64,000 bases of DNA from contig CM059439.1 in the NCBI GenBank assembly GCA_030390025.1, positions 12,090,001 through 12,154,000 of the forward strand. The letters are read 5' to 3'. This stretch comes from Squalus acanthias (taxonomy: Eukaryota). The notes under the pieces were generated by a model, which made no database searches, had not been told where the DNA came from, and saw nothing but the letters and a program-made list of their open reading frames with translations. Of this stretch, positions 5,931 through 63,261 are shown one piece after another. Made by a program: the position numbers and the translations under genes. Position 1 is the stretch's first letter. Each line of letters begins with the position of its first letter.

Positions 5931-8105
5931 CGTGCTAAATAGGATAGATTCAGAACAGATCTAGCAGCTCAAAACTGGGCATCCATGAGGCGCTGTGGGC
6001 CATCAGCAACAGCAGGATTGTATTCCACCACAACCTGTAACCTCATGGCCCGGCATATCCCTCACTCTACCATTACCACCAAGCCAGGGGACCAACCCTG
6101 GTTCAACAACGAGTGTAGAAGAGCATGCCAGGAGCAGCACCAGGCGTACCTAAAAATGCGGTGTCAACCTGGGGAAGCTGCAACACAGGACTACATGCTA
6201 CAAAGCAGAAGCAGTATGCTATAGACAGGGCTAAGTGATCCCACATTCAACGGATCAGATCAAAGCTCTGCAGTCCTGCCACATCCAGTCGTGAATGGTG
6301 GTGGACCATTAAACAACTAACAGGAGGAGGAGGCTCCATGAATATCCCCATCCTCAATGATGGTGGAGCCCAGCACGTGAGTGCAAAAGACAAGCTGAAG
6401 CGTTTGCAACCAACTTCAGCCAGAAGTGCCGAGTGGATGATCCATATCGACCTACTCCCGAGGACCCCACCCTCACAGAAGCCATTCTTCAGCCAATTCG
6501 ATTCACTCCACGTGATATCAAGAAACGGCTGAGCGCACTGGATACAGCAAAGGCTATGGGCCCCGACAACATCCCGGCTATCATGCTGAAGACTTGTGCT
6601 CCAGAACTAGCCGCGCCTCTGGCCAAGCTGTTCCAGTACAGCTACAACACTGGCATCTATCCGACAATGTGGAAAACTGCCCAGGTATGTCCTGTCCACA
6701 AAAAGCAGGACAAATCCAACCCAGCCAATTAACGCCCCACCAGTCTACTCTCAATCATCAGCAAAGTGATGGAAGGTGTCATCAACAGTGCTATCAAGCA
6801 GCACTTACTCACCAATAACCTGCTCACTGATGCCCAGTTTGGGTTCCGCCAAGACCACTTGGCTCCCGACCTCATTACAGCCTTGGTCCAAACATGGACA
6901 AAGGAGCTGGATTCCAGAGGCGAGGTGAGAGTGACTGCTCTTGACATCAAGGCAGCATTTGACCGAGTCTGGCATCAAGGAGCCCTAGTAAAACTGAAGT
7001 CAATGGGAATCGGGGGGGAAAACGCTCCACTGGCTGGAGTCATACCTAGCACAAAGGAAGATGGTTGTGGTGGTTGAAGGTCAATCATCACAGCCCCAGG
7101 ACGTCGCTGCAGGAGTTCCTCAGGGCAGTGTCCTAGGCCCAACCATCTTCAGCTGCTTCATCAATGACCTTCCCTCCAACATAAGGTCAGAAATGGGGAT
7201 GTTCGCTGATGACTGCACAGTGTTCAGCGCCATTCGCAACTCCACAGATAATGAAGCAGTCCATGCCTGCATGCAACAAGACCTGGACGACATTCAGGCT
7301 TGGGCTGATAAGTAGCAGGTAACATTCGCGCCACAGAAGTGCCAGGCAATGACTATCTCCAACAAGCGAGAGTCTAACCACCTCCCCTTGACATTCAATG
7401 GCATTACCATTGCTGAATCCCCCACTATCAACATCGTGGGGGTCACCATTAACCAGAAACTTAACTGGACCAGCCACATAAATACTGTGGTAACAAGAGC
7501 AGGTCAGAGGCTAGGTATTCTGCGGCGTGTGTCTCACCTCCTGACTCCCCAAAGCCTTTCCACCATCTACAAGGCATAAGTAAGGAGTGTGATGGAATAC
7601 TCTCCACTTTCCTGGATCAGTGCAGCTCGAACAACACTCAAGAAGCTCAACACCATCCAGGACAAAGCAGCCCGCTTGATTGGCACCCCATCCACCACCT
7701 TAAACATTCACTCCCTCCACCACTGGCATACCGTGGCTGCAGTGTGTACCATCTACAAGCTGCACTGCAGCAACTCGCCAAGGCTTCTTCGGCAGCACTT
7801 CCCAAACCCGCGACCTCTTCCACCTAGAAGGACAAGGGCAGCAGGTGCATGGGAACACCACCACCTCCAAGTTCCCCTCCAAGTCACACCATCCTGACTT
7901 AGAAGTATATCGCCGATCCTTCATCGTCGCTGGGTCAAAATCCTGGAACTCCCTACCTAACCGCACTGTGGGAGTACCTTCGCCACATGGACTGCAGCGG
8001 TTCAAGAAGGCGGCTCACCACCACCTTCTCAAGGGCAACTAGGGATGGGCAATAAATGCTGGCATTGCCAGCGACGCCCTGATCCCATAAACAAATAAAA
8101 AAAAA
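5931..8105 (+). mobile_element. 5'-truncated CR1/L2-group non-LTR retrotransposon, disrupted RT
   Basis: ORF pieces with RT motifs (QFGFR, LDIKAAFDRVWH, GVPQGSVLGP, FADD) broken by stops and frameshifts; 3' AATAAA and A-rich tail. Confidence 0.9.
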
Positions 8106-17954: not shown

Positions 17955-18794
17955 CTCACAACTCATTTCCTCCCCCCACCCCCCCAATAAAAAGATAGTG
18001 TACAAACAAAATCCACATTAAAAGCTAAAATTAATAGAGAAAATTCAAATGATAGAAACAATTTTTTTTTTTAAATGTAACGTGCTGCAAATACACGGCA
18101 GACCATGTTAATGTTTTGGATGTCAATGAAGGGTCAACACCGGAAATGTTTACCATCTCTTTACAGGTCTGCCAGAACCACTGGGTCTTTGCAGCATTTT
18201 CCGCTTTCATTTGTAAAAAGTTAAATGTCGTATGGAAGAGATATTGGTGGGGAAGTGGGGCCAGACTTGTTTTGTCAATAGCACACTGCCCTTTCTCTCT
18301 TCCTGCCGTTTGTACTAATAAAGATGTTCTATTATTGTGCATGTTTCCAATATCTTCAGAACGTCTTCCTTTTTTTGTTCCCTGTTATGTTAAAAACTAT
18401 CTAATCTGTGCAAATATTTGACTTATTTTCTTCAGAAGGACGACCATCACATGACTTCAGTCCATTAATTTTTAACCGCATGGAATGATTTCCAAAATCA
18501 ATCGCCATGTGTTTTGGAAAGCAAAATACTGCAGATGCTAGAAATCTGAAATAAAAAGAGAAAATACTGCGAACACTCAGCAGTTAAGGCAGCATCGAGG
18601 AAGGCAGGGTTAACATTTCAGATTAATGGTCTTTCATCAAACCACCAAGACATCATCTCCGGACAGTCACTGACTTCATCTCTGGAGATCTTCCCACCAT
18701 GGCCTCCAACTTCATTGTCACCCAATCCCGCACAGCCCGCTTCTACCTCCTGCCTCCTCCCTCCTCCTCCAGATCCATAAACAGGACTGTCTGT

Positions 18795-19895
18795 GTACTA
18801 TTACATAGTATTTACAGCACAGAAACAGACCATTCGGGTAACAGGTCTATGCTGGTGTTTGTGTGTCACACGATCCTCCTCCCACTTTGCTTCGTCTCAC
18901 CCTGTCAACATATCCTTCTATCCCTTTCTCTCTCATGTACTTATCCAGCTTCTCCTTTTAAAGGTATCTGTGGTATTCGCCTTAACCACTCCACGTGGTA
19001 GCAAGTTCCACATTCTAACCACTGAGTAAATAAGTTACTCCTGAATTCCTGACTGGATTTATTACTGACTATCTTATGTTTATGGCCCCTAGTTTTGGAC
19101 TCCCCTCATGTCTACCCTATCAAACCCTTTCATAATCTTAAAGACCACTATCAGGTCACCTCTCGGCCTTCTCTTTTTCTAGAGAAAAGAGCCCCAGCTC
19201 TGGTATCATCCTTGTAAATCTTTTTGCACCTTCTCCAGTGCCTCTATATCCTTTCTGTAAAATGGAGACCAGAACTGTGCACAGTACAAGTGTGGTATAA
19301 CCAAGGTTCTATATAAGTTTAACATAATGTCTCTGCTTTTAAATTCTATTCCTCTAGAAATTAACCCCCAGGGCTTTGTTTGCATGTTTTATGGCTTTGT
19401 TAATCTGCGTTGCTACCTTTTTAATGATTTGTGAATCTGTGCCCCTAGATCCCTTTGTGCCTCTTCCCCATTTAGACTCCCTTATTTTCCAAGGATTAGG
19501 TGGCCTCCTTATTCTTCTACCAAAATGCATCACCTCACTTATCTACATTGAAATTTATTTGCCGTTTACACGCCCATTCTGCAAGTTTGATAACGCCCTC
19601 TTGTATTTTGTCGCAGCCTTCCTCAGTATTAACTATACCCCCCTATTTGGTCTCGTCCACAAATTTTGATATTCTACTTCCGATTCCCGAGTCCAAATCA
19701 TTTATGTAAATGGTGAACAGCAGTGGTCCCAGCTCCGCTCCCTGTGGAACACCACTTCCCACCTTCCGTCAGTCTGAGTAGCTACATTTAACTCCTACTC
19801 TCTGTTTTCTGTTTTGTAGCCAGCTTGCTATCCATTCTGCTACTTGACAACGTCCCCTGACTCCATATGCTCTGACCTTAGTCATGAGTCTACTC
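18795..19895 (-). mobile_element. CR1 (HER1-like) LINE fragment inserted into the PLE RT
   Basis: CR1 3' end (cagcacagaaacagaccattcgg) and reverse-strand RT remnants (GVPQG at ~19740-19752); PLE motifs resume on both sides. Confidence 0.8.
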
Positions 19896-20948
19896 CTGAC
19901 CGATTTGTTTCAGCCTGCTCCTGCCCCACATAACTTACTTCCTTTTATTTCGACTCCCAATTTTTTTTCTCCCCTTGTTCAGTCCCGACTCACCTACACC
20001 TGCGACTCTTCTGATGCCCGCCACCATTTCAACCAATTCCACTTTCCTGACCCTAACCGTCACCTTTTCCACCAGGAACATCCAGTCCCTCTGTACCTCC
20101 CTCCCCCACCAGGATGGCCTGTGGGCCCTCCGCTTATTCCTGGAACAGTGGTCCAATCAGTCTCCATCCACCACCACCCTCTTCCGCCTGTCTAAACTTG
20201 TTCTCGCATTGAACAACTAATCCTTTAACTCGATAGCAAAATACTGCGGATGCTGGAAAATTGAAACAACAACCGAAAACGCTGGAAAAACTCAGCAGGC
20301 CAGGCAGCATCCGTGGAGAGAGAAACAGAGTTAACGTTTCAGGTCGATCCTTTAACTCTGCTCGCTTCTTCCAAATGAAAGGTGTTGTTATGGGAACCTG
20401 CATGGGTCCTAGCTCTCGCAAAATACTGCGGATACTGGAAATCTGAAATAAAAACCAAGTGCTGGAAACACTCAGCCGGTCAGGCAGCATCTGTGGAAAG
20501 AGGAAGGTAGGGTTAACGTTTCAGGTTGGTGAACTTTCTTCCAAACTGCTCCTCAGTCTATCCCCAGAGCTGATGATCGCGAAGTCAAGGAAGGGAAGGA
20601 AGAGTCAGAGATGGCCTGTTGTTTCTCTCTCCACAGATGCTGCCTGACATGCTGAGTGTTTCCAGCATTTTCTGTTTTGATTTGGCTCCTAACTGTGACT
20701 GCCTATTTGTAGGTTATGTTAAGCATTCTTTACCCCAGTCCTACTCGGTTCCCCCCTCCCTGACCTCTTCCAGTACATAGATGATCGTACTGGAAGAGGT
20801 ACTTCCTGTTGTTCCCTCGAGCTGGAGAATTTAATTGACCTTTTCTTCACACTTTCACCCCTCACTCACCTTCATGTGGTCCATCTCTGACACTTCCCTT
20901 TCCTTCCTCTCATTCTCTATCACTATCTCTGGGGATAGATCGAGGAGC

Positions 20949-20985
20949 GGTTCTGACGAAAGGTCATCGACCTGAAACGTTAACC
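20949..20985 (+). ncRNA. Minimal type-I hammerhead ribozyme motif in PLE terminal repeat
   Basis: ggtt-CTGACGA-a-AGGTC(atc)GACCT-GAAA-CG-TT-aacc: intact core, helix II, palindromic ACGU helix III, GUU triplet, helix I ggtt/aacc. Confidence 0.75.
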
Positions 20986-21995
20986 CTACCTTCCTCTCTC
21001 AACAGATAATGCCTGACCGGCTGAGTGTTTCCAGCATGTCCTGGTTTTTAATTTGTGTTTTGGGAAGGGTGGTTTAAAGGGTGCACAGTTGTGCATGTCC
21101 CTTTCTTTCACCCCCTTTCCTGTATACATGCTAAGGTCCGACTGAAACACCAGTTGTCACTTGTGCCTTGTTGTCACATGTGCCTTCTAATTTTAATTGC
21201 TGGCACTCTCGTGGTGTAGGATGAATTCAGTTGGGAAGCCATGATCTTCGCGTTACTCTTGGACTTGCTTGGTGTTGTGCCATGCTTGGTCTGTGTGTAA
21301 AAATATAAACCATGGAATTTCAAGACATTGACTTAGGATCAGTGGATTTATTCCATTTTATTTCTGTTCTCCCTTATAATGGTTGTGGTGCTTTTATCAA
21401 ATACTATTATATATGAAATACAAATGATAATCAAAATCTGACACAAAATAGTCGAACTTGGAAATAAAATAGATGCAATTTAAGCATAGAAAATAATTGA
21501 CACTGGCAAGAATTTGCTTGACGTTGTAATTAGAATAGACCCTTGGGCCTGGTTCTGCGGAGGTGAATTTGAAAGCCGCAAATGGTCTGTTTTTGCTTTA
21601 CAGAAGAATCCTGATGGCTTAATCTGTGCTCATTAGTCCAATGTCTGTTGCCTGAGTGGAGCAGAGTGGGTGGGATGGAGCTGGTGCTGTACTGTGTGGA
21701 GCTGCTGGCTCTAGCCAGTCTGCTGAAAGTAGCTTTACCATGAAGCAAGCTCCAGAGCTGGGTTACTTGTTGTGGACGGTACTACTATGGCACCAATTGA
21801 AAGTAGAGATTCTTTTCTTTTTCATAACGACGACAGTCGAATGTCAGACGTTCTGTCCACTCCCGCCTCCAACTACCAGTATCAATGAGGGATCGTTCAT
21901 CTGTTGGGGCACGCGTCTCAAAACAAAACCATTTGGATATCACGCTAATTATGTAACATGCAGTTCCTGCTCTCCTATCTCTCCCGCCCACGCCC

Positions 21996-27344: not shown

Positions 27345-28160
27345 GGGCGCAATCTTGCCAGCCCTGGGGAGGCGGGTATGGAGGCGGGACCACTGGGAAA
27401 ATGGCAGAATTTGGGGGCGGGTGCCCAACCCGCCTCCGTGCCATCTTCCTAGGAGGTGGGTAGCCGACCCACGCCGGGTCCCGTCTCCTTGGAGGCGGGA
27501 AGGGATTAAAGCCTATTAACTGCATGTTAACAGGCAGAAAATAGGATTATCCCCTTTTTGCCATCACAAGTGCGGGCTTCCCGAAGGCTCCGAAACCCAC
27601 CAGGGTCACCGAGGCGAGTAGTGGGTCTGCAGGGGTCGGAGGGGTCCAAAAGTGTGCTGTGAAGGTAAGTGATGGGTGCAAGTGTGGAGAGGTGAGTATC
27701 TGAGGTAAGTGTTATTAAAAGTGTACTTACCTTTGTTTCTTCCTGCAGGCTTCAGTCGGTGGGTATGCGGAGAGTCTCGGACCTCCGCGTTGGAGATGAC
27801 AGATGGCCATTGCATTCTCAGATGCAACAACCATCTCATTTCTGCAAAAGAAAGAAGTTTGATGAGGTCTTGAATTCAAGACCTCATCAAACTACAGAGA
27901 ATGTCAGTGTTTGACAGCTTCACAGAGCTGTCAAACGATGACAATTCATCTGTCAAAAATTTTTGACAGATAAAACGTCATACGTTGACGTTCTCTGCAA
28001 CTGGCTTTCCCTTAATTGGCCTGCTAAGCCCACTGGGCAGCTTAACAAGGTCAATCAAGGGAAAATAGTGTGGGTTGGCCAGAAGTTGTTGGAGGCGGGA
28101 CTGAAACCCGACAAGTGGGAGCCCCGCCTCCAAAAGCTCCCCATTGGCAAAATCACCCCC
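27345..28160. mobile_element. Harbinger-type MITE inserted in an L2 tail
   Basis: Termini GGGCGCAATCTT / AAAATCACCCCC and GGAGGCGGG subterminal motifs; splits the L2 sequence cctaatatctc|cttatgtgg. Confidence 0.65.
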
Positions 28161-30674: not shown

Positions 30675-32509
30675 CAGTCGTGAATGGTGGTGGACCATTA
30701 AACAACTAACGGGAGGAGGAGGCTCCATGAATATCCCCATCCTCAGTGATGGTGCAGCACAGCACGCGAGTGCAAAAGACGAGGCTGAAGCGTTTGCAAC
30801 CATCTTCAGCCAGAAGTACCAAGTAGATGATCCATATCGGCCTACTCCTGAGGTCCCCACCATCACAGAAGCCAGTCTTCAGCCAATTCGATTCACTCCC
30901 CGTGATATCAAGAAACGACTGAGCGCACTGGATACAGCAAAGGCTGTGGGCCCCAACAACATCCCAGCTGTCGTGCTGAAGACTTGTGCTCCAGAACTAG
31001 CCGCGCCTCTAGCCAAGCTGTTCCAGTACAGCTATAACACTGGCATCTATCCGACAATGTGGAAAACTGCCCAGGTATGTCCTGTCCACAAAAAGCAGTA
31101 CAAATCCAATCCGGCTAATTACCGCCCCATCAGTCTACTCTCAATCATCAGCAAAGTGATGGAAGGTGCCGTCGACAGTGCTATCAAGCGGCACTTACTC
31201 ACCAAAAACCTACTCACTGATGCCCAGTTTGGGTTCCACCAGGACCACTCTGCTCCAGACCTCATTACAGCCTTGGTCCAAACATGGACAAAAGAGCTGA
31301 ATTCCAGAGATGAGGTGAGAGTGACTGCCCTTGACATCAAGGCAGCATTTGACCGAGTGTGGCATCAAGGAGCCCCTGTTAAACTGAAGTCAATGGGAAT
31401 CGGGGGGGGAAACTCTCCACTGGTTGGAGTCATACCTAGCACAAAGGAAGATGGTTGTGGTGGTTGGAGGTCCATCATCACAGCCCCAGGACATCGCTGC
31501 AGGAGTTCCTCCGGGCAGCGTCCTAGGCCCAACCATCTTCAGCTGCTTCATCAATGACCTTCCCTCCATCATTAGGTCAGAAGTGGGGTTGTTCGCTGAT
31601 GACTGCACAGTGTTCAGTGCCGTTCGCAACTCCTCAGATAATGAAGCAGTCCATGCCCATATGCAGCAAGACCTGGATGACATTCAGGCTTGGGCTGATA
31701 AGTGGCAGGTAACATTCATGCCACACAAGTGCCAGGCAATGACCATCTCCAACAAGCGAGAGTCTAACCACCGCCCCATGACATTCAACGGCATTACCAT
31801 TGCCGAATCCCCCACCATCAATATCCTGGGGGTCATCATTGACCAGAAACTTAACTGGACCAGCCACATAAATATTGTGGCAACAAGAGCAGGTCAGATG
31901 CTGCGTATTCTGCGGCGAGTATCCCACCTCCTGACTCCCCAAAGCCTTTCCACCATCTACTAGGCACAAGTCAGGAGTGTGATGGAATACTCTCCACTTG
32001 CCTGGATGAGTGCAGCTCCAACAACACTCAAGAAGCTCGACACCATCCAACAGAAAGCAGCCTGCTTGATTGGCACCCCATCCACCACCTTAAACATTCA
32101 CTCCCTCCACCACCAGGCGCACCGTGGCTGCAGTGTGTACCATCTACAAGATGCACTGCAGCAACTCACCAAGGCTTCTTCAGCAGCACCTCCCAAACCT
32201 GCGACCTTTACCACCTAGAAGGACAAGGGCAGCAGGCACATGGGAACACCACCACCTCCAAGTTCCCCTCCAAGTCACACACTATCCTGACTTGGAAGTA
32301 TATCGCCGATCCTTCATTGTCACTGGGTCAAAGTCCTCGAACTCCCTCCCTAACAGCGCTGTGGGAGTACCTTCACCACACGGACTGCAGCGGTTCAAGG
32401 CGGCGGCTCACCACCACCTTCTCAAGGGCAATTAGGGATGGTCAATAAATGCTGGCCTTGCCAGTGACGCTCACATCCCATGAACGAATATTTAAAAAAA
32501 AATAAAAAA
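30675..32509 (+). mobile_element. Second copy of the same LINE family, disrupted RT
   Basis: Colinear and highly similar to 6285-8105; NYRPISLL, LDIKAAFD, FADD motifs; A-rich tail. Confidence 0.9.
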
Positions 32510-32854: not shown

Positions 32855-33007
32855 NNNNNNNNNNNNNNNNNNNNNNNNNNNNNNNNNNNNNNNNNNNNNN
32901 NNNNNNNNNNNNNNNNNNNNNNNNNNNNNNNNNNNNNNNNNNNNNNNNNNNNNNNNNNNNNNNNNNNNNNNNNNNNNNNNNNNNNNNNNNNNNNNNNNNN
33001 NNNNNNN
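32855..33007. other. Assembly gap (153 N)
   Basis: Run of N. Confidence 1.
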
Positions 33008-37766: not shown

Positions 37767-38705
37767 TAAGTTTTTTTTTCTCTTTTTCGAATATTTATCC
37801 ACGACTCTCTTTTAAAAGCTATTATGGATTCTGCTTCCACCAGTGGCCGTTTGGGAATGAAGTGCCAAAGATGGTGCTAAGCAGATAGCTCATGGCTCCA
37901 AATTCAGTACTGATTGACCAGGAGACAATTTAAAAATGGCTCAAATTTATAATGACGAATGGGACTCGTGATTTTGCCAAGTTTAACTCCCATTTTGCTG
38001 TTGTAAGTGAGAATAGTAGACTTTCATCTCTGGTTACTTTTGTGTCCTCTTCTGTGTGTATGTTGCTATTTTTTTTTACAATTTCACAGGCCGTCGATCT
38101 TCAGCTTTACTGCCAGCTTCAGAAATAATCCATTATGTTCTCTTTTTTTTTGTTTGCCTTGAGTAGATACTAATAGGGGAAGGGAAGCGATGAATTATAA
38201 CTCACGAGACATGAAGATTTTATTGGACCAATCTAATTGTGGAAATGATCCTGCTCCCTACTCCAGTCCAGGTTCAGCAATGTCTCTAATCATCTAATGC
38301 TGGTTTCCTAAAACCTGCATTTCACCTGGGTGGATTATCAGACTCTGCTGGAGATACTGGATGTTTTTTTTTTAAAAAGACCAACCATTTTCCTCAACTT
38401 AATTTCTGTGCTCAAGCATTCAGTCCCACGTACCCTTGCATGCACACACTTTCCTGATCTGACTGTGAATAAAACCAGATTTGTTTTTCCTATTGGTTAG
38501 TTGTTCACACAAGCAGCTATGGGCACCAAGAACTTTTAGTGCTGTGACTTAATGGGACCCGTTGAGTAATGTTCTGCCAATTCATTTTGAATTGTTCTCT
38601 TACAAGATGTGGATCTTCCTAGTCTCATTCAGTGTTCCCATTTCCATTGATTGTTATTCCACTGGACATTTTAACTGATGGGAATTCTAACCTACATTGG
38701 CATCT

Positions 38706-38799
38706 GACGAAAGGTCATCGACCGGAAACGTTAACTCTGTTTCTCTCTTCGCAGATGCTGCCTGACCTGCTGAGTTTCTCCAGCATTTTCTGTTTTTAT
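38706..38799 (+). mobile_element. Short PLE-terminus insertion with hammerhead core
   Basis: CTGACGAaaggtcatcgaccgGAAAcgtt at 38704-38732; TSD TTGGCATCT at 38697-38705 and 38800-38808. Confidence 0.75.
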
Positions 38800-39308
38800 T
38801 TGGCATCTTCACATTTGGGTTACTTTTGTAAACATTTGACTTTTATTTTCCTCTTGGCAGCAACTTTGAAAGTAATGCGTCAGAAAGAGCTGGTGTCATA
38901 AACTCCCATGTGTATTTTTAGATTCCTTTAGCAGTGTTTACTGTCATCTATGAATCAGTGCCTTGTAGATTATAAAGCCACTGTATGTTGTGGCTGCTTC
39001 ACTAATTATATCCCATTTAAGGGAATGCCTTGGGGGAACTATAGCTGGATGGGAGGGGAGGGGTGTAACTCAAGTGAATGCAATCTAATTGGAGATCTGC
39101 TGTCCAGATTTAAAGAGAGCAAGATAAATAAGTCCCTGCACTATCCCTATGGTTTTGGTGATCTTGCTGTGTGCAATTGGATGACTTTTTTCCTGTGTGT
39201 GGCGGTTGCATTTTTCTGAATGCCTAAGTCTCTACCCCATTTCTGATGTATTTGCCTGCCTGTCTGTGCCTCAGTATGTCCCTCTCCATTGCAACCTCCC
39301 TCCCTGTC

Positions 39309-39790
39309 CCAGTATGCCCCTGTCCATCTCCATACCAAGTATGACCCTCTCTGTCCCAGTATGCCCCTGTCCATCTCCATACCAAGTATGACCCTCTCTG
39401 TACCAGTATGCCCCTGTCCATCTCCATACCAAGTATGACCCTCTCTGTACCAGTATGCCCCTGTCCATCTCCATACCAAGTATGACCCTCTCTGTACCAG
39501 TATGCCCCTGTCCATCTCCATACCAAGTATGACCCTCTCTGTACCAGTATGCCCCTGTCCATCTCCATACCAAGTATGACCCTCTCTGTACCAGTATGCC
39601 CCTGTCCATCTCCATACCAAGTATGACCCTCTCTGTACCAGTATGCCCCTGTCCATCTCCATACCAAGTATGACCCTCCCTGTCCCAGTATGCCCCTGTC
39701 CATCTCCATACCAAGTATGACCCCCTCTGTACCAGTATGCCCCTGTCCATCTCCATACCAAGTATGACCCTCTCTGTACCAGTATGCCCC
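39309..39790. repeat. 47-bp minisatellite, ~10 units
   Basis: Unit CCAGTATGCCCCTGTCCATCTCCATACCAAGTATGACCCTCTCTGTA starting at 39309, 39356 ... 39779. Confidence 0.95.
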
Positions 39791-40301
39791 TCTGCATCTC
39801 AATATCCCTCTCTGCACTACTTCATATGAACAGAGGAAAAGAAGGGTGAGAAAAGAGCATTCGATCCATCAAACCTTCCCCATCTAATAGACGGAGTAAC
39901 TCCGTGCGTTATCTTCTCACCGCCTAGTTATGGTATCTCCTGGGAGAAACAATATCATAGTCATAACGGCACAGAAGGAGGCCATTTGGCCTATCACGTC
40001 CATGCCGGCTCTCTAGAGCAATCCAGTCAGTCCCATTCCCCCACTTTATCCCCGTAGCCCTGCAAGTTTATTTCCTTCAAATATAACAGGAGAAAAAAAA
40101 AACCTGTGGCCAATTCAGGAAATGTTAGATACTCAGAGTTTTACAAGTTCAACATACATTCAGAAAGGATAAATTATACATGAGGACAAAGTGATGCTCT
40201 GTCTACAGCCCAAGAATAAGAACAAAGGGCATCCTTAATCTTGTACCCTGTTCAAATCTTTATTATAGGGCAGCAAAGTAGCTGTGAACATTAGAGTCTA
40301 A

Positions 40302-49859: not shown

Positions 49860-50564
49860 CGTGCCCCAAATAGGGCTACTTTTAGCGCCCCAGAAAAATT
49901 AGCACCCCCGCGCCAGAAATTGAGTGGTTGCACCCCAAGAGGGAAGCGGGGCGCTACTGGAAGCGCCCCACATCCCTCTTGGGGCGCTGCGAGTCAATAT
50001 CGCGGCGCTGCGGCACGTCGCGCCACGGTATTGCAGGCCTTCCTCCCCTTCTTAAAGGGGAGGGGCCTTGTGCAGCGTGACCTGGGGCCCAGCTGGGCCC
50101 CCCGGGGATCAGGAGTGGCGGCAAAAGAGCCCGGCACTCGAAGTGCCGGGCTGTTGGAGCGCAGCCGGCACTCCCTGGGGGGGCGGGTCAGGAGGCCGGG
50201 GACGGGAGCGAAGGCAGGTAGTGCCAGGCAGCCAGCAACAAAAATGGCCGCCCTGCACCTCCCCTCTAAATAGCGCCTCCCCGGCTGCAGGTAAGCCCCC
50301 CTGACCCCATCGGACATGGCGTCCGGCAGTAAGTCGGGGGGCTCTCCCGAAGATCGCGGCCGGAGCGGGGTGCTGCGCACGGCGATGATGTCATCGCCAT
50401 CGACACAGCGCCGTGGGGCACTACCGGTTAGCGCTCTGCTAACCTCCCGCTGAATTTCGCGGGAGGCATGGGTGGCGCTGCACCCGGGCGCTATTTGCTT
50501 TGCGCCCCGTTAGAGCCCTCTTGGGGCGCTAACAGGAGGCGCAAAGCAACCCAATTTTCCCCCC
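49860..50564 (-). mobile_element. GC-rich MITE, same family as 2993-3725
   Basis: Ends gcaaagcaacccaattttccccc, the reverse complement of the 2993 terminus; left boundary uncertain. Confidence 0.65.
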
Positions 50565-51197: not shown

Positions 51198-52497
51198 ACA
51201 CCATAAATAAATAAATGGTTCCCAAATAACACTTAATTCAATGGCTGTTGGCTACACCACTTCCGATTCTCCACTATGCTCGCTGTGACGTATTCTAATT
51301 TGAAAACCAGTAAAATAAGCATAAGTTATTGGCGCGCTAGATGAGAAAATGTATAGTATACACTGCTGATCCTGTCATTGCAGTAAAATCTGTGCCCATA
51401 TCTCTAAAGGTGCTTTTACTCTAGTGCTTAAACATCAGGTAAAGAGACCCTATTTCAAGAGAGTGAACTCTGAAACAACCCCCCCCCCCCCCCCCCCCCC
51501 CCGGCCTGCCTTTTACGCTAGGTGATGGGAGCTGGGATCCACTCTGTAATACTGAGACCTAGAATGTAAATGTGAGAGACTGGATCCCTGTGTTTATTTT
51601 GCTGCAACCGGCAGCCATAACCCAGTGGCACCATTGTAGAGCCCACTTCTGTGGGTCCCTGATTTCATTGATGCCCTGAACATCAGGTCATTTACACTAT
51701 GGAGATGCGTTGATTGAGACAGTGTCGTGTATCTGTCGTGGGCCGGACTCTCGATGTGTTTAAAGAATCTGGTTCCAGTCAATGAAAATTAAAGTTTTTC
51801 CTCATCATATTACAGCAATAAACTTTGACTCTCTTTATTTTGGGCTACTCTTTAAAAGTTAAAAAGTGCCAGATAAAATATTTGTCCGTGGCCATGGGGA
51901 CCATCACAGACTAACTGAATTGCTGTAAGATTGTTTAAATCCTGTCATCTCATCTCATTTAATCTCATCCTTCCAGAATACCAACCCTATTGCCTTCCCA
52001 GCGTCTACTTTCTCAGATTAGTTCAACATCCTGGCCTCGATAACTCTTGCATTACTTCAGCTGTTGATAACTCTTTGTATAAAGAAATACTTGCTGCCAC
52101 CTGGCTTAAATTAGCCTTTCCCAAGTCTGTGCTCTTGTATTGATGTATGAAGTTTACTTTGACTATCCTGTTAAGTATTTTGTGTACCTCCTATAAGGTC
52201 GCCTCTCGGCTTGAGGTTGAAGAGCCGGGACTCTTGCTCATAACTCGTCCCTCTGGGGATTTGAACTCAACTGATGTTGGTAATGTAATCCAGCATCCTC
52301 TTTGTTTTGTTTATTGCTACCTCACGCTATTTAGACATGGTGGGCGATGAGTCAACGATCATTACTTTCATCTCTTTTTTTTCCCCTTTCTCCCCCCACC
52401 CATAAAGTACATATGCCTCCTATTTTTTACTTCCAATTTACACTTGCCTGTATTGAACTCTGATCACTGCCACTGATCAACCCAGGCTCCAACCTTA

Positions 52498-52581
52498 ATA
52501 CGATAGCAAAATACTGCAGATGCTGGAAATCCGAAATAACAACAGAAAACGCTGGAAAAACTCAGCAGGCCAGGACGAAAG
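52498..52581 (-). mobile_element. Truncated PLE terminus (tail side only, no ribozyme core)
   Basis: Same sequence as 20232-20305; TSD GGCTCCAACCTTA at 52485-52497 and 52582-52594. Confidence 0.75.
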
Positions 52582-53535: not shown

Positions 53536-53672
53536 TCCCTGCCTCTGTACATGCTTAAAAACTGTTGCATCTCGAACTGATGAAAGGTCATCGACCTGAA
53601 ACGTAACCTCTGTTTCTCTCTCCACAGATGCAGCTCGACCTGCTGAGTATATCCAGCATTTTCTATTTTATT
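53536..53672 (+). mobile_element. Short PLE-terminus insertion with hammerhead core
   Basis: CTGATGAaAGGTCatcGACCTGAAAcgta at 53577-53605; TSD ATAGA(T/A)TTAGAATT at 53522-53535 and 53673-53686. Confidence 0.75.
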
Positions 53673-54383: not shown

Positions 54384-56954
54384 ATGTTTACCCTCACAGA
54401 AGTTGCATCTCTTAATGACATACAGGCAACCTATCGAATCCTGAAGCCATGGTGGGACGTATTCATGGACTATTTAGCCCTTGTAATGCTGATGGTCGCT
54501 ATCTTTGCGGGCACCATGCAGCTGACCAAAGATCAAGTCGTGTGTCTTCCTGAGCCCCAATCAGACGAAAGGTCAGAAACCCAGCGCAGCATCTCGGAGA
54601 GTCCGACAAAATTTCCCGAAGCATCTGCTGTACCAGATTTAGGAAGCACTACCTCTTCGCGAGGGAGACGGAATCATGCTACTGAGGGAGCCAACGTCTT
54701 TGCTTTTGGAAGCGTGCCTACGATAACCGTTGACCTACCTGATGACGTCGATCATCCCGTACAAAGAGCCCCTCTCAACTTTGGGCGTCCGACTAACTTA
54801 GAGTACCAGCAATATATTTTCATCAATCAGATGTGCTATCATGTGGCCTTGCCCTGGTACTCCAAGTATTTTCCCTACCTTGCTCTAATCCATACACTCA
54901 TCCTCATGGTCAGTAGCAATTTCTGGTTCAAGTACCCCAAGACCAGTTCAAAGATCGAACATTTTGTTTCTATATTGGGAAAGTGTTTCGAGTCTCCGTG
55001 GACCACAAAAGCACTCTCTGAGACTGCGTGTGAGGACTCTGAGGAGAACAAGCAACGCTTTAAGACCTCTGTAGCAAAGCATTTATCGACTGGCAGTGAA
55101 GAAGAAAGCCCGAGCTCCAGCACACCCATGATATCGAGGACTGGACCTAAATTTTCGGCTGAGAAGCCGGTCATTGAGGTTCCTAGCATGACTATTTTAG
55201 ACAAGAAAGATGGAGAGCAGGCCAAAGCCCTTTTTGAAAAAGTTCGTAAGTTCCGTGCCCATGTAGAAGACAGTGATTTGATATATAAACTCTATGTTGT
55301 CCAGACAGTCATAAAGACAGTGAAATTAATGTTTATTTTATGTTATACGCTTACTTTTGTGACTTCTATAAGTTTTGATCATGTCTGCAAACCAGACATA
55401 GAGCATTTGACTGGATATACTGAATTTTATTGTACTCACAACATGGCTTTTATGCTGCGAAAATTACTAATTAGTTACATTGCACTCATATGCGTTTATG
55501 GACTGGTTTGCATATATACTTTGTTTTGGCTGTTCAGGCGGCCCTTAAAGGAATACTCATTTGAAAAGGTCCGTGAAGAAAGTAGTTTTAGTGACATTCC
55601 AGATGTTAAAAATGACTTTGCATTTCTGCTGCACATGGTTGATCAATATGACCAACTTTACTCGAAGCGCTTTGGGGTCTTCCTGTCGGAGGTGAGTGAA
55701 AACAAACTGCGGGAGCTGAGTTTGAACCACGAGTGGACTTACGAGAAACTCAAACAGCACGTCTCTCGGAATCCTCAAGACAAGCTGGAGCTGCACCTCT
55801 TCATGCTCTCCGGGGTGCCCGACGCGGTCTTCGACATGACCGAGCTGGAGGTGCTGAAGCTGGAGCTGATTCCTGAGGCGAAGATTCCTGCCAAAATCTC
55901 CCAAATGACGAATCTTCAGGAACTGCACCTTTACCATTGCCCTGCTAAAGTGGAACAAACTGCCTTCAGCTTCCTCCGGGACCACCTTAGGTATCTGCAC
56001 ATCAAGTTCACTGACGTTGCGGAAATTCCCACCTGGGTCTATTTGCTTAAAAACCTGCGTGAACTGTACCTGGTTGGTAATCTGAACTCTGAAAATAATA
56101 AGATGATCGCTCTAGAGTCGCTGCGAGAACTGAAACACCTGAAGATCTTGCACCTAAAGAGTAATCTGACCAAAGTTCCTTCAAACATCACTGATGTTGC
56201 GCCCCATCTCACTGCTCTACTGGTTCACAATGATGGAACTAAACTTTTAGTACTGAATAGCTTGAAGAAGATGATCAATCTAACTGAGCTAGAGCTGCAG
56301 AACTGTGAGCTGGAACGGATCCCACACGCCATTTTCAGCTTGACCAACTTGCAGGAACTGGACTTGAAATCCAACAATATTCGCACAATCGAGGAGGTGA
56401 TCAGTTTTCAACATCTGAAGCGCTTGACGTGCCTGAAACTGTGGCACAACAAAATCATCACCATCCCTTCATCCATCAGCCTGGTGAAAAACCTCGAGTT
56501 GCTTTACCTTTCTCAGAATAAACTAGAATCTCTGCCAGCAGCTCTCTTCACTTTACAGAAGCTCAGATACCTGGATGTAAGTCACAATTCCATCGTCGTC
56601 ATTCCAGCGGAAATCACGTCTCTCCAGAATTTACAGTATTTCGCAGTTACAGGAAACCGAGTGGAAATTTTGCCAAAGCAGGTTTTTAAGTGCACAAAGT
56701 TGCGGGTTTTGAATGTAGGGCAAAACTGCATCACTTCCATTTCAGAAAAGGTTGGTCAGCTTGTGCAGCTCACACAGCTAGAGGTGAAGGGGAACTGCCT
56801 GGACCGACTTCCAGCAGAGTTGGGCCACTGTCGCCTTCTGAAGAAAAGCGGGCTTGTCGTTGAAGATCACCTCTTTGACACACTGCCCCCCGAGGTCAAA
56901 GACCTCTTTAATCAAGACTTTAACTCAAATTCGACTTTTGGCGCAGGAATATAA
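54384..56954 (+). CDS. LRRC8D: Leucine-rich repeat-containing protein 8D (VRAC subunit), single coding exon, 856 aa
   Basis: The ORF read from the internal Met is MFTLTEVASLNDIQATYRILKPWWDVFMDYL..., the LRRC8D-type N-terminus. It has a pannexin-like 4-TM domain (WYSKYFPY, FWFKYPKTSSKIEHF, LDKKDGEQAKALFEKV, DVKNDFAFLLH), a long first extracellular loop and C-terminal LRRs. The first 33 aa of the 889-aa ORF lie upstream of a splice acceptor and are intronic. Confidence 0.95.
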   Translation: MFTLTEVASLNDIQATYRILKPWWDVFMDYLALVMLMVAIFAGTMQLTKDQVVCLPEPQSDERSETQRSISESPTKFPEASAVPDLGSTTSSRGRRNHATEGANVFAFGSVPTITVDLPDDVDHPVQRAPLNFGRPTNLEYQQYIFINQMCYHVALPWYSKYFPYLALIHTLILMVSSNFWFKYPKTSSKIEHFVSILGKCFESPWTTKALSETACEDSEENKQRFKTSVAKHLSTGSEEESPSSSTPMISRTGPKFSAEKPVIEVPSMTILDKKDGEQAKALFEKVRKFRAHVEDSDLIYKLYVVQTVIKTVKLMFILCYTLTFVTSISFDHVCKPDIEHLTGYTEFYCTHNMAFMLRKLLISYIALICVYGLVCIYTLFWLFRRPLKEYSFEKVREESSFSDIPDVKNDFAFLLHMVDQYDQLYSKRFGVFLSEVSENKLRELSLNHEWTYEKLKQHVSRNPQDKLELHLFMLSGVPDAVFDMTELEVLKLELIPEAKIPAKISQMTNLQELHLYHCPAKVEQTAFSFLRDHLRYLHIKFTDVAEIPTWVYLLKNLRELYLVGNLNSENNKMIALESLRELKHLKILHLKSNLTKVPSNITDVAPHLTALLVHNDGTKLLVLNSLKKMINLTELELQNCELERIPHAIFSLTNLQELDLKSNNIRTIEEVISFQHLKRLTCLKLWHNKIITIPSSISLVKNLELLYLSQNKLESLPAALFTLQKLRYLDVSHNSIVVIPAEITSLQNLQYFAVTGNRVEILPKQVFKCTKLRVLNVGQNCITSISEKVGQLVQLTQLEVKGNCLDRLPAELGHCRLLKKSGLVVEDHLFDTLPPEVKDLFNQDFNSNSTFGAGI

Positions 56955-58929
56955 AGTATTGAGCAAAGCATATGTAGCAGCTTCGGAACTGAATGTTTGT
57001 TTGCTTGTTAACTGGAAAAAAAATGTATAAAATAGAGCAAGGTACTTAAACATGGCAACTGTTTAAAAACTAGAGAAAGGTGATGCTAGTTTTTTTTGCC
57101 CTGATAAAGCTCTCAAATCATTGTAATAAATTGTAACCAATTAACTAACTGTTGGTCACTGGTTGTCTTATACAAGTCTGTTGATGACTGAATATTTGTT
57201 CGTATATCCTTGTTTGTAAATGAATTTAATTTTAATTTATTCTCAACACTTTTTTTAAAAAAGAAAGAAAAATTCCTTTTTAATTTTCATAACCCTGTCC
57301 AAAGAGTGGGTAGATTACCTGCTCCCTGGTCTCTCCAGGTGCTAGGCCTCTTTCAGCTCTGCTGCTGAGCTGACCATTACAAGGGTTGTGAGTGCAACAA
57401 CAGTGTATCTCAAACTCTTAACTTTATCTCCCTCCAGGCAGCTTGGCTCCTCTCCTTTTAACAGCGCAGTTAAGATCAGAAATTTGCATAAACCCGCATT
57501 TTGTGTATCTGTGGTACCACACCACACCACCTGTCTCCTTTTTTTTTGTTTGTATTTCTGTAGCAAGAGAGTTGAGTTCCAGGCTCTAAACTGTGTGAAT
57601 TTAGCATACAGAATGTGCCAATATCTAGATCCTAGCACCAATTTCAGCTGTTTCTAAATAAAAGAAAACAAACTTACTTCAAAGTAATTGTTTTTTTTTA
57701 CTCGCTTGGTAGCTGCTTTAAAGAAGGAAGGGCCAAGGAGACCAATTTCAGCACCACGCACTCCTCCATGTGTGCTACTCGCCTAAATCATTCAAATGTA
57801 CCGATTGCCGCATTGTGCCCAGAAAACCCTCTGACAAAACATGATGAGGGCTCGTCATGACACGTGTCTCATTCAGTGTCTACGTTCAGTTTTATAGAAG
57901 TTGCACTTCGTACTGATCTCGACATCAATCTGCGGGCGAACCAGAGGGGGAAAAAATACATGAATACTGGCAACTTTCCGCCTCCCTCCCCCCCCCACTG
58001 CTTGGCCAGCTCTAAATCAATCTGCAGATGCACAGGTTTCTGTGTAAATGAATGGGGTTGCTCTGGGATGCACCTTGGCTGTCCTCCAATAAACATCATG
58101 TTTGGCTCTGGGTTGCCGATGGAGACCTGAAATTATACCAAGTGATTCACTAAATCAAAGATCTCTCCTAGCAGAGAAAAGATATCTTCATATTTTCAAT
58201 ACATATGAGAAACACATTCTCTGGCCTTTTCTTCTGCTTTCCAAGTACTGAGAGATCCCGGTCATCCTTTTATTGCATCGTAATGGTTGCTGTAGCTGGC
58301 TGAAATGCATAAGAATCCACAAATACGATAACTAGATGGATTTAAAGAAAAAAATACAATTACAAATTACCAGCTCCCTGATTGGCTCAGCTAATTGACA
58401 TGAGTTGCAGAGCTATACTGACGAGGAGGACCCCAGATCCTAGGTAGCTGATCTCCGCAAAGGTAGCAATAGAACTCCTACAAATTGATCTCCGTGACCC
58501 TGGCTTAGGGACAAGAACATTTTCTAAATCTGCCACCAGACCCTAGCTGGAGGTGTGTGTGTGGGCTTGCTTAAGGCTGGCAGTGTTTCTATGTCCCCAC
58601 TCCCTTCCTTGCAATTGAATAGTCCACTAGCACTCAAAGCTTATGTTCACCGATGATGAATTTCCCTATGGGCAAGGTCACCAGCAACTAGTCGATACGT
58701 GGAGGAGAGGATGGCGGGGGGGGGAAATTAAGTTTGAAAAGTGACCATTATTCTCCCCCCCTGGTGAAACAGCACAGGTCTGTGTCAACCATGTAAATTG
58801 GTGCCTCCAACTGTTCAAAACTACATCTAAGAAAGAGATTGCATTTATATAGTGCCTTTCAGGATGTCCCAAAGTGCTTCACAGCCAACGAATAATTTTT
58901 GCCGTGTACTCACTGGCATAATGTAGGTA

Positions 58930-59163
58930 AAAATTGAGAGGTCGCACAACACCAGGTTATAGTCCAACAGTTTTATTTGAAATCACAAGCTTTCGGAGCT
59001 ATCGATCGCCCCTTCCTCAGGTGAAGTAGAGTACTTCACCTGAGGAAGGGGCGATCGATAGCTCCGAAAGCTTGTGATTTCAAATAAAACTGTTGGACTA
59101 TAACCTGGTGTTGTGCGACCTCTCAATTTTGTCCACCCCAGTCCAACACCAGCATCTCCGCAT
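58930..59163. mobile_element. Penelope-like element terminus in inverted configuration: perfect 99-bp arms, 3-nt loop, 33-bp tail, 15-bp TSD
   Basis: 58930-59028 is the exact reverse complement of 59032-59130. Unpaired tail at 59131-59163. Direct repeat CATAATGTAGGTAAA at 58917-58931 and 59164-59178. Inserted into a Deu-SINE fragment. Confidence 0.85.
59036..59077 (+). ncRNA. Minimal type-I hammerhead ribozyme motif (identical copy on - strand at 58983-59024)
   Basis: tcac-CTGAGGA-a-GGGGC(gatcgata)GCTCC-GAAA-GC-TT-gtga: CUGANGA and GAAA core, helix II, palindromic AGCU helix III, CUU cleavage triplet, helix I tcac/gtga. Confidence 0.75.
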
Positions 59164-59280
59164 CATAATGTAGGTAAACATGGCAGCCAATTTGTGCACA
59201 GCAAGGTCCCTTAATCTTCATTTTAGTTGAAGCAAAGAGCATAATCCAGTTATTAAACAGATTATATCCGAGATTCGAAG

Positions 59281-59800: not shown

Positions 59801-61462
59801 TATCTAGACAAAATATCTGAACCTCAAGGTTACTGTTGGTGCTACTAGTAGACAATCGCTTTAATTATTATTGCATAATCATCTGGTGATAAAACCTCCA
59901 TTAAAACTGAACTGAGGGAAGTCATACAAACATGTTTATTGTTTGTTTGTCCCCTCCTGTCGCAAATATTAATACCTAGGCCCACGGTTTAGGTCCTTAC
60001 AACCAAAAGCCTAGGCGACAAAAGGCTGCAAATGATCTGCAATTAAGAAGACTTGCATTTTGAAAATGATGAAATCAAGTCAAAAATTTGTGCTGGGAAA
60101 TAGATATTGGAGGAGCGTCCTGTGCATCAACTGTAAGTTAATTGGGGTTTTCTTTTAGTTGGCATTCTGTGCCTGAATCCATTCCACGTGGTAAAATCAG
60201 CCCCAAGGTTTATATAAGCACAAGCACGTGCAATCAAAAAAACATTGTGATAGGATAGCAGGTGGTTTATTTGTGGTACTTCTAACGATGCCACTGTGCG
60301 TGGTGGATGCATTTAAGGGGAGCTAGATAAGCACATGAGGAATAGAAGGCTATGCTGATGGGGTTAGAGTGAAGTAGGGTGGGAGGAGGCTCGTGTGGAG
60401 CATAAACACCGGCATAGACAAGTTAGGCCGAATGGCCTGTTTCTGTGCTGTAGATCCTATGTAACCCTATGTAAGTAACTAAGGAATCCAGCTAGTGTGC
60501 TAAGAGTCCTGGTGCTGACCTAACGCTATGAGTTCTCCTATTGAACATGCTTACATATCATACCTATGGTGCAAAGATCAGTATTAGTCTATTTCAGGGC
60601 CCAGTTCTCCCTGTTCAATTTGGACACAAACACCCTGTTGGGTTGAGCACAAGATTAGCTTTGCACACACTTTGAAAAATTTCCCTCCCAGCTAGTACAG
60701 ATGCCGAGAGGTTTTAGTGCTCAGGAGTGAAGAGGAAATGGGCCGAATGAATTTGTGTGCCAGCAGACTTTTTTTAATGTGCGTGTTTTTGTGTGTGTGT
60801 GTTTTAATATATGGATGCAAAGCCATGACAACTGAGTGCAAAAACATTTTAATTTATTTGTAAAACAATGGTACTTGGCAGACTGTTGTGTTCCAAAAGC
60901 GGAAAAAACACACAAATAGTCCAAATTCAGGTACAGGATCTTCCAGTTATTATCCAGTTTAAATTGGGCAATGGTCTCTTTTTAAAAAAAACTAGAATAT
61001 AATTGGGCACAACAGGCAAAATACATTTTTATGGAAATAATAATTACAATTTTAACTGTAGTGCAGATACAATGCGTTCTATTTTTCTGAAGCTTTTTTA
61101 ATAACCTGAATGAATGTAAACCCAGGATCTTGACCTGTTTGTTTCAACTCTACTGTATTGTGAACTTTATTCTGTTTTTTTTTTTGCCGCTGCACAGTTT
61201 CTTCATGGATGTGCGAAAGATATAGTTTATAATTAGCCCTACCACAGTAACTTTTTTTTTAAATGACTTGAAAAATGTTGGTCTTATTCATGCATGCCTG
61301 TACACTAATGTTCCAAGTTTGGTTCTCAGAAGCCAATATTTCTCCAATTAAGATGTAATTTGAAATAGATGTCTTGTTGAATTTTAGGCAAAAACATTGC
61401 TGTCTTAATGTCAATGCACTATTGATTCTTAACTGAACCAGTCTTAGTTGTTTTCAAAACCT

Positions 61463-61468
61463 AATAAA
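61463..61468 (+). terminator. Candidate distal polyadenylation signal for LRRC8D (proximal candidates at 57125-57130 and 57657-57662)
   Basis: AATAAA at the end of a TE-free, U/A-rich, UTR-like block (~60950-61480) containing upstream TGTA motifs. Which site is used cannot be determined from sequence. Confidence 0.4.
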
Positions 61469-63111
61469 GGTGCTCGAAATGTTCACTCACTACATCCTGC
61501 TAATATAGCCAGGACATTTGTTGCATAGGTCATGACTGCCCTCTAGTGCAAATTCAGTGGCATAGTCAGTGAATTGTACCAGGAGGAGTCTGGCTCCTGG
61601 CTCCTACCTCCAGCCGTGTCTGTGAACCTACAGACTCCCAAAAAAGCCCGAAACCAATGTCCATATCTACCTGCATCACTGACCAGAAATATGATGAGTA
61701 GGAAAGTGTTTGAGGTGACTCTCCTTTTTTCCTAATTGGGTAGATTCTTATGCGTGTTAAAGTCCATCATTTGTATAAAGTATTAAAATGCAGCTTTCTG
61801 AGTACCTGCATAACGGAATCCAAATTAGGACCAGCCAGTATTGGACTACTGTTTAATCAACTCAAGAGGCAAAAACTCTGCCTTTTTCAATGGGGTCTCA
61901 GTAAGACAAGAGCACATAAGTTATGCCTAGTTTCTAATGTCGGTGGCTTTTGGAAGTGATTCTTTATTTTGCTGGTTGAAAAGGCTCCTGTTTTAGTGCA
62001 CAATGGTTTCGCCGGCACGAAATGGTGGATAGAGGGAGATGGCTACTTCCAGTCTGAACGCCCAAGCGTTCTTGCTGCATTGTGTGCCCGTAGTTTACTA
62101 GTTTTATTGGTAATACTAACCTACTCCCAGCAGAGCAATGACACTTTTTCCACTTTGAACTTCGAAGATGTATAGAATCTATATTGTACCAGTAAGGGCC
62201 GGGGAAACGGTTGCAGAAATTAGGTTGGGGCAGTTAGGCTGCAGGCGGCCATTTTTTTTTATGTTGCCATCTCTGATGTTATCACCGCTTTTATTAAGAA
62301 ACCCTGAACAGCACATCCAACATTTGGAGACACTGTTGTGAAATGTGGCCTCCTTTGAATTTGCACATTTTATAGCAGCAAACAACAGCCAATTCTGCAT
62401 TCAATCAGCTCCTGTTTGCTACTATGACCTGAGGTACAACAGTCTCTGTTGGTATTGATACTGCACAGCCTGTAAGTCTTAATACCTAGTAAACCTGTGG
62501 ATGCATTCTGTCAGTACAGCTTCATTTTCTAACCCATCAAATTTTAATTTAGCCAATTCAACAGTGCCAACTCTTCAGAGACAGCCAAGACAGATTAACT
62601 ACTGGAGAAGTAATGAAGAAAGACAAGAAGAATAAAACATTTCAGATAAGGATTTTTTTAACGGTAAATTTTGGAAAAGAACAATCCAGATAATGACACA
62701 CCAACATGTATTATGGAATTTTAAGAATACAAATAAAGATGCAGTTCTTGAAATGACTTTGTTTGTTTGTTTGTTTATTTACCTTTTAAATAATCTTCCC
62801 AAAACCAATCCTTCCCCTACACCACCCCAACACACCAGATTAGTTGTCATTTCCTGTCTTCCGCCTGCTATTTTATTAGCTTGATCGATCCTGGAGAAAA
62901 CACCTTCTGAGCATGCACCTGAAAGTGCCATCGTGATGCTGCAGATAGATGGTGCTTTACATTGTCCTTTACTCCAGAGCTGCATGAAGCCTCAGAACCT
63001 ATGTTGACCCCTGGTTCATTTTCCCCAACTAAAGCTTCTACACTCATCCCATCCTCTTGGCTCCAAAGGTTTGGAACAGTGAAGGGGGGGTGGGGGGGGG
63101 GGTTGGTGGCA

Positions 63112-63261
63112 GAGTTAATTTTCACCTTCAGCCCTTGGACAGTAAACTGGCAGAGCGGATTGCCCATCCATTACAGAAACTGCCCAATTTTCATTTCTAT
63201 AAGGGGTGGGCAATCCGCTCTGCCAGTTTACTGCCCAAGGTCTGAAGGTGAAAATTACCTC
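63112..63261. mobile_element. Fold-back MITE (~68-bp imperfect inverted arms)
   Basis: taattttcaccttcag.ccttgg.cagtaaactggcagagcggattgccca is repeated in reverse complement. Confidence 0.75.

Follow-up and report, generated by a model that had tools for sequence, protein, structure and literature searches.

Penelope-like elements (PLEs) have been reported in vertebrates, but not in mammals, in the accessible part of PMC6765202, and the available text of PMC8969392 is concordant on PLE structure. According to the accessible sections of Craig et al. (PMC8557442), PLE insertions carry an inverted 5'-truncated copy adjoining the 5' end and a tail of 30-40 bp, often at a single end; for rotifer PLEs, those of Arkhipova et al. 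(PMC3846280) report junctions that are palindromic and head-to-head, with a tail of 31 bp and TSDs of 8-10 bp. For the minimal hammerhead ribozymes (min-HHRs) of PLEs, the available text of Cervera and De la Pena (PMC4209133) gives four recurrent features: an extra nucleotide lying between position 9 and position 10.1, a G10.1-C11.1 pair, a palindromic helix III (15.2-16.2), and covariation within the family. Opposite-strand pairs of min-HHRs, 100-700 bp apart, were attributed in the same text to a probable origin from truncated PLEs. In the anole PLE, both strands of the target undergo cutting and extension, and an A+C-rich stem-loop contains the two internal sites where reverse transcription begins; the interval between these sites is the tail (accessible sections of Frangieh et al., PMC11167929).

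The locus described here lies in a 64-kb stretch of shark DNA, analysed as a whole (the window), and is very probably a heavily 5'-truncated PLE insertion; this class was assigned by anatomy, not by homology to a full PLE end. The element consists of a perfect palindrome and a tail. Two arms of 99 nt each (58930-59028 on the - strand and 59032-59130 on the + strand), 100% complementary to each other, flank a 3-nt GAG loop (59029-59031), and the runner-up among the perfect inverted repeats of the window (loop of 20 nt or less) had arms of 19 nt. The right arm is a direct, pLTR-like copy of the element's 3' end, with a 5' truncation located 8 nt upstream of the core of the hammerhead (from arm comparison), and the left arm is an inverted, tail-less copy of the same end. 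Both arms end at the same base at the centre, and the non-palindromic 3 nt between them form, from the geometry of the palindrome, the head-to-head junction of two 5'-truncated copies. A tail of 33 nt with 73% A+C (59131-59163, + strand), fitting the 30-40-bp tail of PLEs, was found 3' of the right arm only. The whole is flanked by an exact direct repeat of 15 nt (58917-58931 and 59164-59178, + strand), and the final 2 nt of the left TSD also belong to the left arm, i.e., a 2-nt microhomology; the insert proper, with this overlap removed, is therefore 58932-59163 (232 bp). The mismatch-free arms, loop, tail, and TSD claimed in the original prediction were all reproduced.

The element interrupts an older interspersed SINE-like repeat on the + strand (58829-58931 plus 59164-59210; overall 58829-59210), which is restored with a single copy of the TSD. 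The computed empty site was aligned through the junction to five of the six paralogues of this host repeat in the window with 70-78% identity, and the alignment to the sixth stopped within the TSD. Since removal of the insert restored the older repeat as in the five paralogues, the palindrome-plus-tail is a real insertion into that repeat. Stop codons were found in all six frames of the whole element, and the absence of any ORF excludes an autonomous full-length PLE. No second copy of the element was found within the 64-kb window. Palindromic stretches were also observed elsewhere (27856-27893, 27915-28003, 49916-50001, and 63112-63261), among them a perfect one of 38 bp in the midst of clustered short palindromes and one of 151 bp that is 86% self-complementary and possibly MITE-like.

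Descriptor search and folding revealed a minimal type-I hammerhead in the right arm (59036-59077, + strand), consisting of a 4-bp helix I (59036-59039/59074-59077), CUGAGGA (59040-59046), a 5-bp helix II with an 8-nt loop (59048-59052/59061-59065), GAA (59066-59068), the palindromic AGCU (59069-59072), and U17 at 59073; a bulged A at 59047 was absent from the earlier description. The mirror copy in the left arm (58983-59024, - strand; descriptor match at 59020, span from mirror symmetry) has a predicted cut after 58987 on that strand. The two motifs are approximately 11 nt apart on opposite strands, and both point outward from the centre. The claim of two complete hammerheads stood in that each arm has one minimal type-I motif, but a single RNA strand bears only one; on the other hand, the statement that RNA from either strand contains a ribozyme motif plus its antisense proved correct for both strands. 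The min-HHR core CUGANGA...GAAA, U16.1-H17, the extra 9/10.1 nucleotide, the G10.1-C11.1 pair, the palindromic helix III, and a short helix I were all found; three of the four features given in the available text of PMC4209133 are thus present, the exception being family covariation, for which there are only two identical arms to compare. The likeness to metazoan PLE min-HHRs in that source therefore covers the conserved core, the extra nucleotide, the G10.1-C11.1 pair, the palindromic helix III, the 4-bp helix I, and the opposite-strand pairing, whereas the 5-bp helix II with its 8-nt loop and the spacing of approximately 11 nt (in place of 100-700 bp) differ.

An isolated arm folded into the hammerhead with pairing probabilities of 0.89 (helix II) and approximately 0.6 (helix I). 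Applied to 300 random sequences, each 64 kb long and with the dinucleotide content matched, the strict hammerhead descriptor gave one match, corresponding to an expectation of approximately 7e-6 per 132-nt unit, so that the hammerhead is not a chance match; in the window, it gave three matches: both arms and 20953. The Infernal-type search that had been proposed as a check did not bear out the motif: Rfam covariance models returned no match at the gathering score over the whole window, and the nine matches obtained in 58880-59220 at E up to 10 included no hammerhead family and were all under their cut-offs. These sub-threshold matches were mostly to miRNA models, which fit any long hairpin, and were rejected.

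The head-to-head inverted truncated copy, the 33-nt tail at one end, the 15-nt TSD, and the hammerhead in the terminal repeat were all found at this locus. Because the inverted copy, one-sided tail, TSD, and opposite-strand hammerheads form the published signature of 5'-truncated PLE insertions, the Penelope-like origin with a minimal type-I hammerhead, as originally proposed, is supported. The element resembles truncated endonuclease-positive PLEs (Penelope/Poseidon and Neptune clades; accessible text of PMC8557442 and PMC3846280) in its palindromic head-to-head junction, one-sided tail, TSD, and terminal-repeat hammerhead, but differs in the extreme truncation (132 + 99 nt, no ORF), the breakpoint common to both arms, and a TSD of 15 bp, exceeding the 8-10 bp of rotifer PLEs. 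As in Poseidon PAc of Anolis carolinensis (accessible text of PMC11167929), an A+C-rich stem-loop comes after the hammerhead, and the tail is bracketed by two 3' ends; one start region of PAc is 85-92 nt past the cut site, and the distal end of the element is 90 nt past it. The ORF of PAc begins in this region, unlike in the element with its stops in all six frames.

Several points speak against the truncated-PLE assignment: the 5-bp helix II is below the 7-8 bp of Schistosoma motifs (available text of PMC4209133), Rfam gave no hammerhead match, and independent truncation alone fails to explain the identical breakpoint of the arms. Relatives are also lacking, both as another copy in the window and as a true relative in prokaryotic contigs, phages, and plasmids. 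No credible tblastn match was found between the element and 56 PLE-type proteins (best E 1.5), a 22-nt element pattern had no match in (prokaryotic) genome contigs, and the 132-nt unit had no blastn match among phages and plasmids; a gapped pattern hit two loci in the genome contigs, both of which were chance matches of 14-16 nt in bacterial DNA. Four 16-nt motifs of the element occurred in no paper of the literature searched, no shark term was found in the searched supplementary files of PMC4209133, and in the literature searches, which covered papers outside subscription journals and repeat databases, no title or opening of an abstract dealt with this locus or its shark family. This is a known kind of insertion: every structural feature has already been published for PLEs, and the locus is one more instance. 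Similar termini are probably common in shark assemblies.

The window also shows PLE activity, with a decayed PLE-type RT gene and a second hammerhead family. For a 46-amino acid stretch of the former (19889-20939, + strand), phmmer detected 56 relatives. One of these, the 927-amino acid P0146, has RVT_1 followed by GIY-YIG together with DKG and GVAMG motifs, with both Pfam matches under the curated cut-offs (24.9 vs 29.6 and 20.5 vs 22.6); among eight relatives scanned, RVT_1 was found in four and GIY-YIG in one. The RT fragment near 20080 gave no Pfam match in three fragments and none in a word-based search of eight candidates, and its signal in the Atlas was weak, consisting of a cluster at 0.85 of which 19% carried RVT_1. 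The second family, with the same ribozyme design, comprises eight fragments nested in the RT gene and scattered (18517-18643, 20230-20353, 20418-20614, 20620-20686, 20881-21053, 38703-38801, 52495-52574, and 53577-53659), and its best-preserved motif is at 20954 (+). Four fragments have a tail of approximately 30 nt and the other four end before it, giving two end positions approximately 30 nt apart. A 12-nt direct repeat flanks the copy near 20231-20351, and a 10-nt one that at 38703. This family aligned poorly to the palindrome element and is an analogy rather than a homologue, which also counts against the truncated-PLE assignment.

Within 19889-21053, the RT gene is interrupted by several hammerhead-family ends. 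The same region contains an older inverted pair, 20418-20614 (-, tailed) and 20881-21053 (+, tail-less), 83% identical and with a common RT-to-hammerhead junction. Other features of the window were two LINE-like RT fragments of 1.8 kb with 92% identity (6286-8105 and 30675-32501), a tandem array of approximately 90-bp units (39259-39804), and an assembly gap of 153 N (32855-33007).

The element lies approximately 2 kb downstream of the stop codon of LRRC8D (54384-56954, + strand), assigned by Pfam, PDB, and protein comparisons. This ORF contains Pannexin_like (Pfam) and LRRs, and its best PDB match was LRRC8D with 1509 bits (LRRC8A: 1020), confirming the gene identity given before; residues 40-300 showed 97% identity to Heptranchias perlo, 92% to Heterodontus, and 68% or less to the named bony vertebrates listed, which identifies the host as a shark. 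With regard to the 3' UTR, the distal AATAAA at 61463 proposed earlier exists, but the signal is also present upstream of the element at 57125, 57657, and 58088, in addition to copies inside (59083) and after it (59299); the most U-rich downstream sequences among these signals were those of 57125 and 57657. Inclusion of the element in some LRRC8D mRNA isoform is, in our judgement, possible but less likely than not. AATAAA occurs on each strand of the element, and the + strand copy (59083-59088) could serve polyadenylation but would be base-paired in the hairpin. The A+T-rich region 60780-61470 ends at the distal AATAAA, had no repeat match in self-blast, and resembles a terminal 3' UTR by eye only. 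If present in LRRC8D mRNA, the element would be expected to undergo editing, as is already known for other inverted repeats: the accessible text of PMC5625713 reports more than 40,000 edited sites in lizard Penelope, heavy editing of palindromic frog repeats (Harbinger), and approximately 200,000 hyper-edited sites in elephant shark brain. The likeness to these palindromic and inverted repeats lies in the long dsRNA into which the element would fold by itself, if transcribed.

In folding of the full element, the hairpin had -198.3 kcal/mol and the best fold retaining the hammerhead -118.5 kcal/mol, a gap of approximately 80 kcal/mol, and the pairing probability of the hammerhead helices in the full palindrome was 0.0. 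The gap was still 76 kcal/mol at the point where the ribozyme has just been transcribed, and the hairpin persisted with at least 300 nt of flank per side. Since the copies are head to head, read-through from either side transcribes the antisense arm first, and since the two ribozymes are on opposite strands, a cis dimer is impossible. Two isolated arms preferred a non-catalytic dimer via the palindromic helix II loop (-35.1 vs -23.3 kcal/mol in a model that ignores core tertiary contacts); a 6-nt palindrome in this loop region (59052-59057) favours the competing dimer in folding. A 9-bp stem between the body (59105-59113) and the tail (59144-59152) was predicted with a probability of approximately 0.67 (+, span 59105-59152), and its loop contains the proximal 3' end (59128-59130). 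For a competing pairing, also of 9 bp (59091-59099/59140-59148), the probability was approximately 0.3. The body-tail stem is statistically weak (z -1.9; 11 of 200 shuffles folded equally well). In the four tailed copies of the second family, z ranged from -0.5 to -2.7, with body-tail pairing in the MFE of three.

These energies suggest that the hammerhead motifs are most likely locked in the hairpin and do not act as a switch. A functional switch in the LRRC8D 3' UTR, with the dsRNA hairpin and the self-cleaving ribozyme as its two states as in the original prediction, agrees with the position of the element past the stop codon and ahead of AATAAA at 61463, and with the motif and its antisense on each strand; however, the gap of 76-80 kcal/mol, the synthesis of the antisense arm first on both strands, the three AATAAA signals preceding the element, and the dimer preferred by isolated arms (core tertiary contacts unscored) count against it, and such a switch is very unlikely. 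In addition, the available text of PMC4209133 reports that cleavage was absent with single min-HHRs and low with dimers, and that of PMC11167929 describes the hammerhead of the anole PLE as requiring protein and dispensable for insertion in vitro, with no RNA-seq read ends found at the cut site. Heavy editing or a transcript initiated at the centre could free the hammerhead motif; nothing here indicates either.

The original description of the locus as a protein-free mobile unit of approximately 230 bp could not be maintained, because the inverted-plus-tail shape is the one described for insertion by PLE proteins and no second copy is present in the window. A non-autonomous element of 232 bp, copied whole as palindrome-plus-tail by PLE proteins, would agree with the perfect arms and with a TSD and hammerhead cores that are all intact; moreover, other sequence can be mobilised in trans by PLE ends, and non-autonomous PLE derivatives are known (available text of bioRxiv 10.64898/2026.07.22.740005, PMC8557442, and PMC3846280); however, only a single copy occurs in 64 kb, the full RNA would form the -198 kcal/mol hairpin, burying the 5' strand of the 3' stem-loop, and the retrozymes described in the available text of the bioRxiv paper are head-to-tail tandem repeats, all of which makes this improbable. 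Non-LTR retrozymes (accessible parts of the same preprint; see also PMC7229834) resemble the element in being short, non-coding, hammerhead-bearing, and PLE-derived, and are reported in the sole chondrichthyan sampled. Their ribozymes are on the same strand, and at least two head-to-tail units are needed; the element, which is head-to-head with one hammerhead per strand, was rejected as a retrozyme. A MITE or fold-back DNA transposon carrying a coincidental hammerhead, to which the short, non-coding sequence, long inverted repeats, and TSD would correspond, is highly improbable because the inverted repeats are not terminal (33 nt separate the right arm from the TSD) and the hammerhead is expected by chance only approximately 7e-6 times. 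Chimeric reads can create perfect palindromes, and a fold-back artefact of sequencing or assembly would have this origin; the flanks are uninverted, one host repeat continues across the 15-bp duplication, the tail is one-sided, and the only run of N in the window (32855-33007) is 26 kb away. The earlier argument from TSD and tail against such an artefact was well founded, and we regard it as extremely improbable.

For the heavily truncated PLE insertion, two routes of formation have to be weighed. In the one that we consider on balance the probable route, a PLE RT/GIY-YIG protein encoded elsewhere would nick both strands 15 nt apart at an A+T-rich target inside the older repeat; the TSD and empty site were computed, and the enzyme is putative. 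Both free 3' ends would then prime reverse transcription, each at one of two start sites within the PLE RNA. From the distal start, the tailed copy would arise, and from the proximal, U-rich start, aided by the 2-nt A:U microhomology, the tail-less inverted copy. Two start sites and priming on both strands have been demonstrated in vitro for the anole PLE (accessible text of PMC11167929), in which the integration steps after first-strand priming are left unresolved. The two cDNAs would extend just past the hammerhead and be joined head to head; being identical, they would anneal only at a short self-complementary motif, from which we infer the symmetric junction with its tiny loop. Only the last 132 nt of the element plus an inverted copy of 97-99 nt would be laid down. 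The product would be dead on arrival, since it has no ORF and its read-through RNA would be a 99-bp hairpin in which the ribozyme is concealed together with most of the 3' stem-loop. Any transcript would be a likely, passive substrate of A-to-I editing.

Alternatively, also within the PLE explanation, a single tail-primed cDNA may have left the RNA past the hammerhead, primed itself on a short native inverted repeat, been copied back to the U-rich site, and been joined to the other target end by microhomology. This fold-back, which is a real possibility although short of probable, accounts in one step for the identical 5' breakpoint, the 3-nt loop, and the 0/99 mismatches, and Arkhipova and colleagues interpret PLE junction palindromes as self-priming (available text of PMC3846280); it gives no reason, however, for the inverted arm to end where the tail begins. 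Counted from the hammerhead cut site, the two 3' ends of the element lie 55-57 and 90 nt downstream. Tail-less ends also recur in the second family (4/8 fragments), including the solo copy at 38703 with its 10-nt direct repeat and no inverted partner seen, and this recurrence, which counts against fold-back, suggests that the proximal site is a true start of reverse transcription, as in the anole PLE (PMC11167929, accessible text). Any route other than two-primer joining or fold-back is unlikely. Truncation of the 5' end at or just before the hammerhead core was seemingly present in both families (38705, 53578, and 59032), in tiny numbers and with possible query bias; this could mark a stall of the RT or a defined 5' end of the RNA.

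The insertion is probably recent, judging from 0/99 mismatches in the arms, 0/15 in the TSD, and four intact CpGs per arm. The claim of a young age stood only loosely: the 95% upper bound on divergence is approximately 2.6-3%, and palindrome arms can be homogenised.

A unit that recurs in the shark lineage and is moved by PLE proteins, its many copies alike in centre and arm length while differing in their TSDs, is a slim prospect. If true, it would be a MITE-shaped retroelement with hammerheads silenced by its own antisense, which would seed 3' UTRs, that of LRRC8D among them, with 99-bp dsRNA hairpins. Only such a repeated family with a fixed junction would be a new kind of element; by itself, the single locus matters little. 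As a truncated PLE insertion, the locus is a clean specimen: a mismatch-free inverted insertion that records both start sites of reverse transcription, the stagger of the nicks, and the joint at the centre. If such insertions were collected across a shark genome, two-primer joining and fold-back could be told apart.
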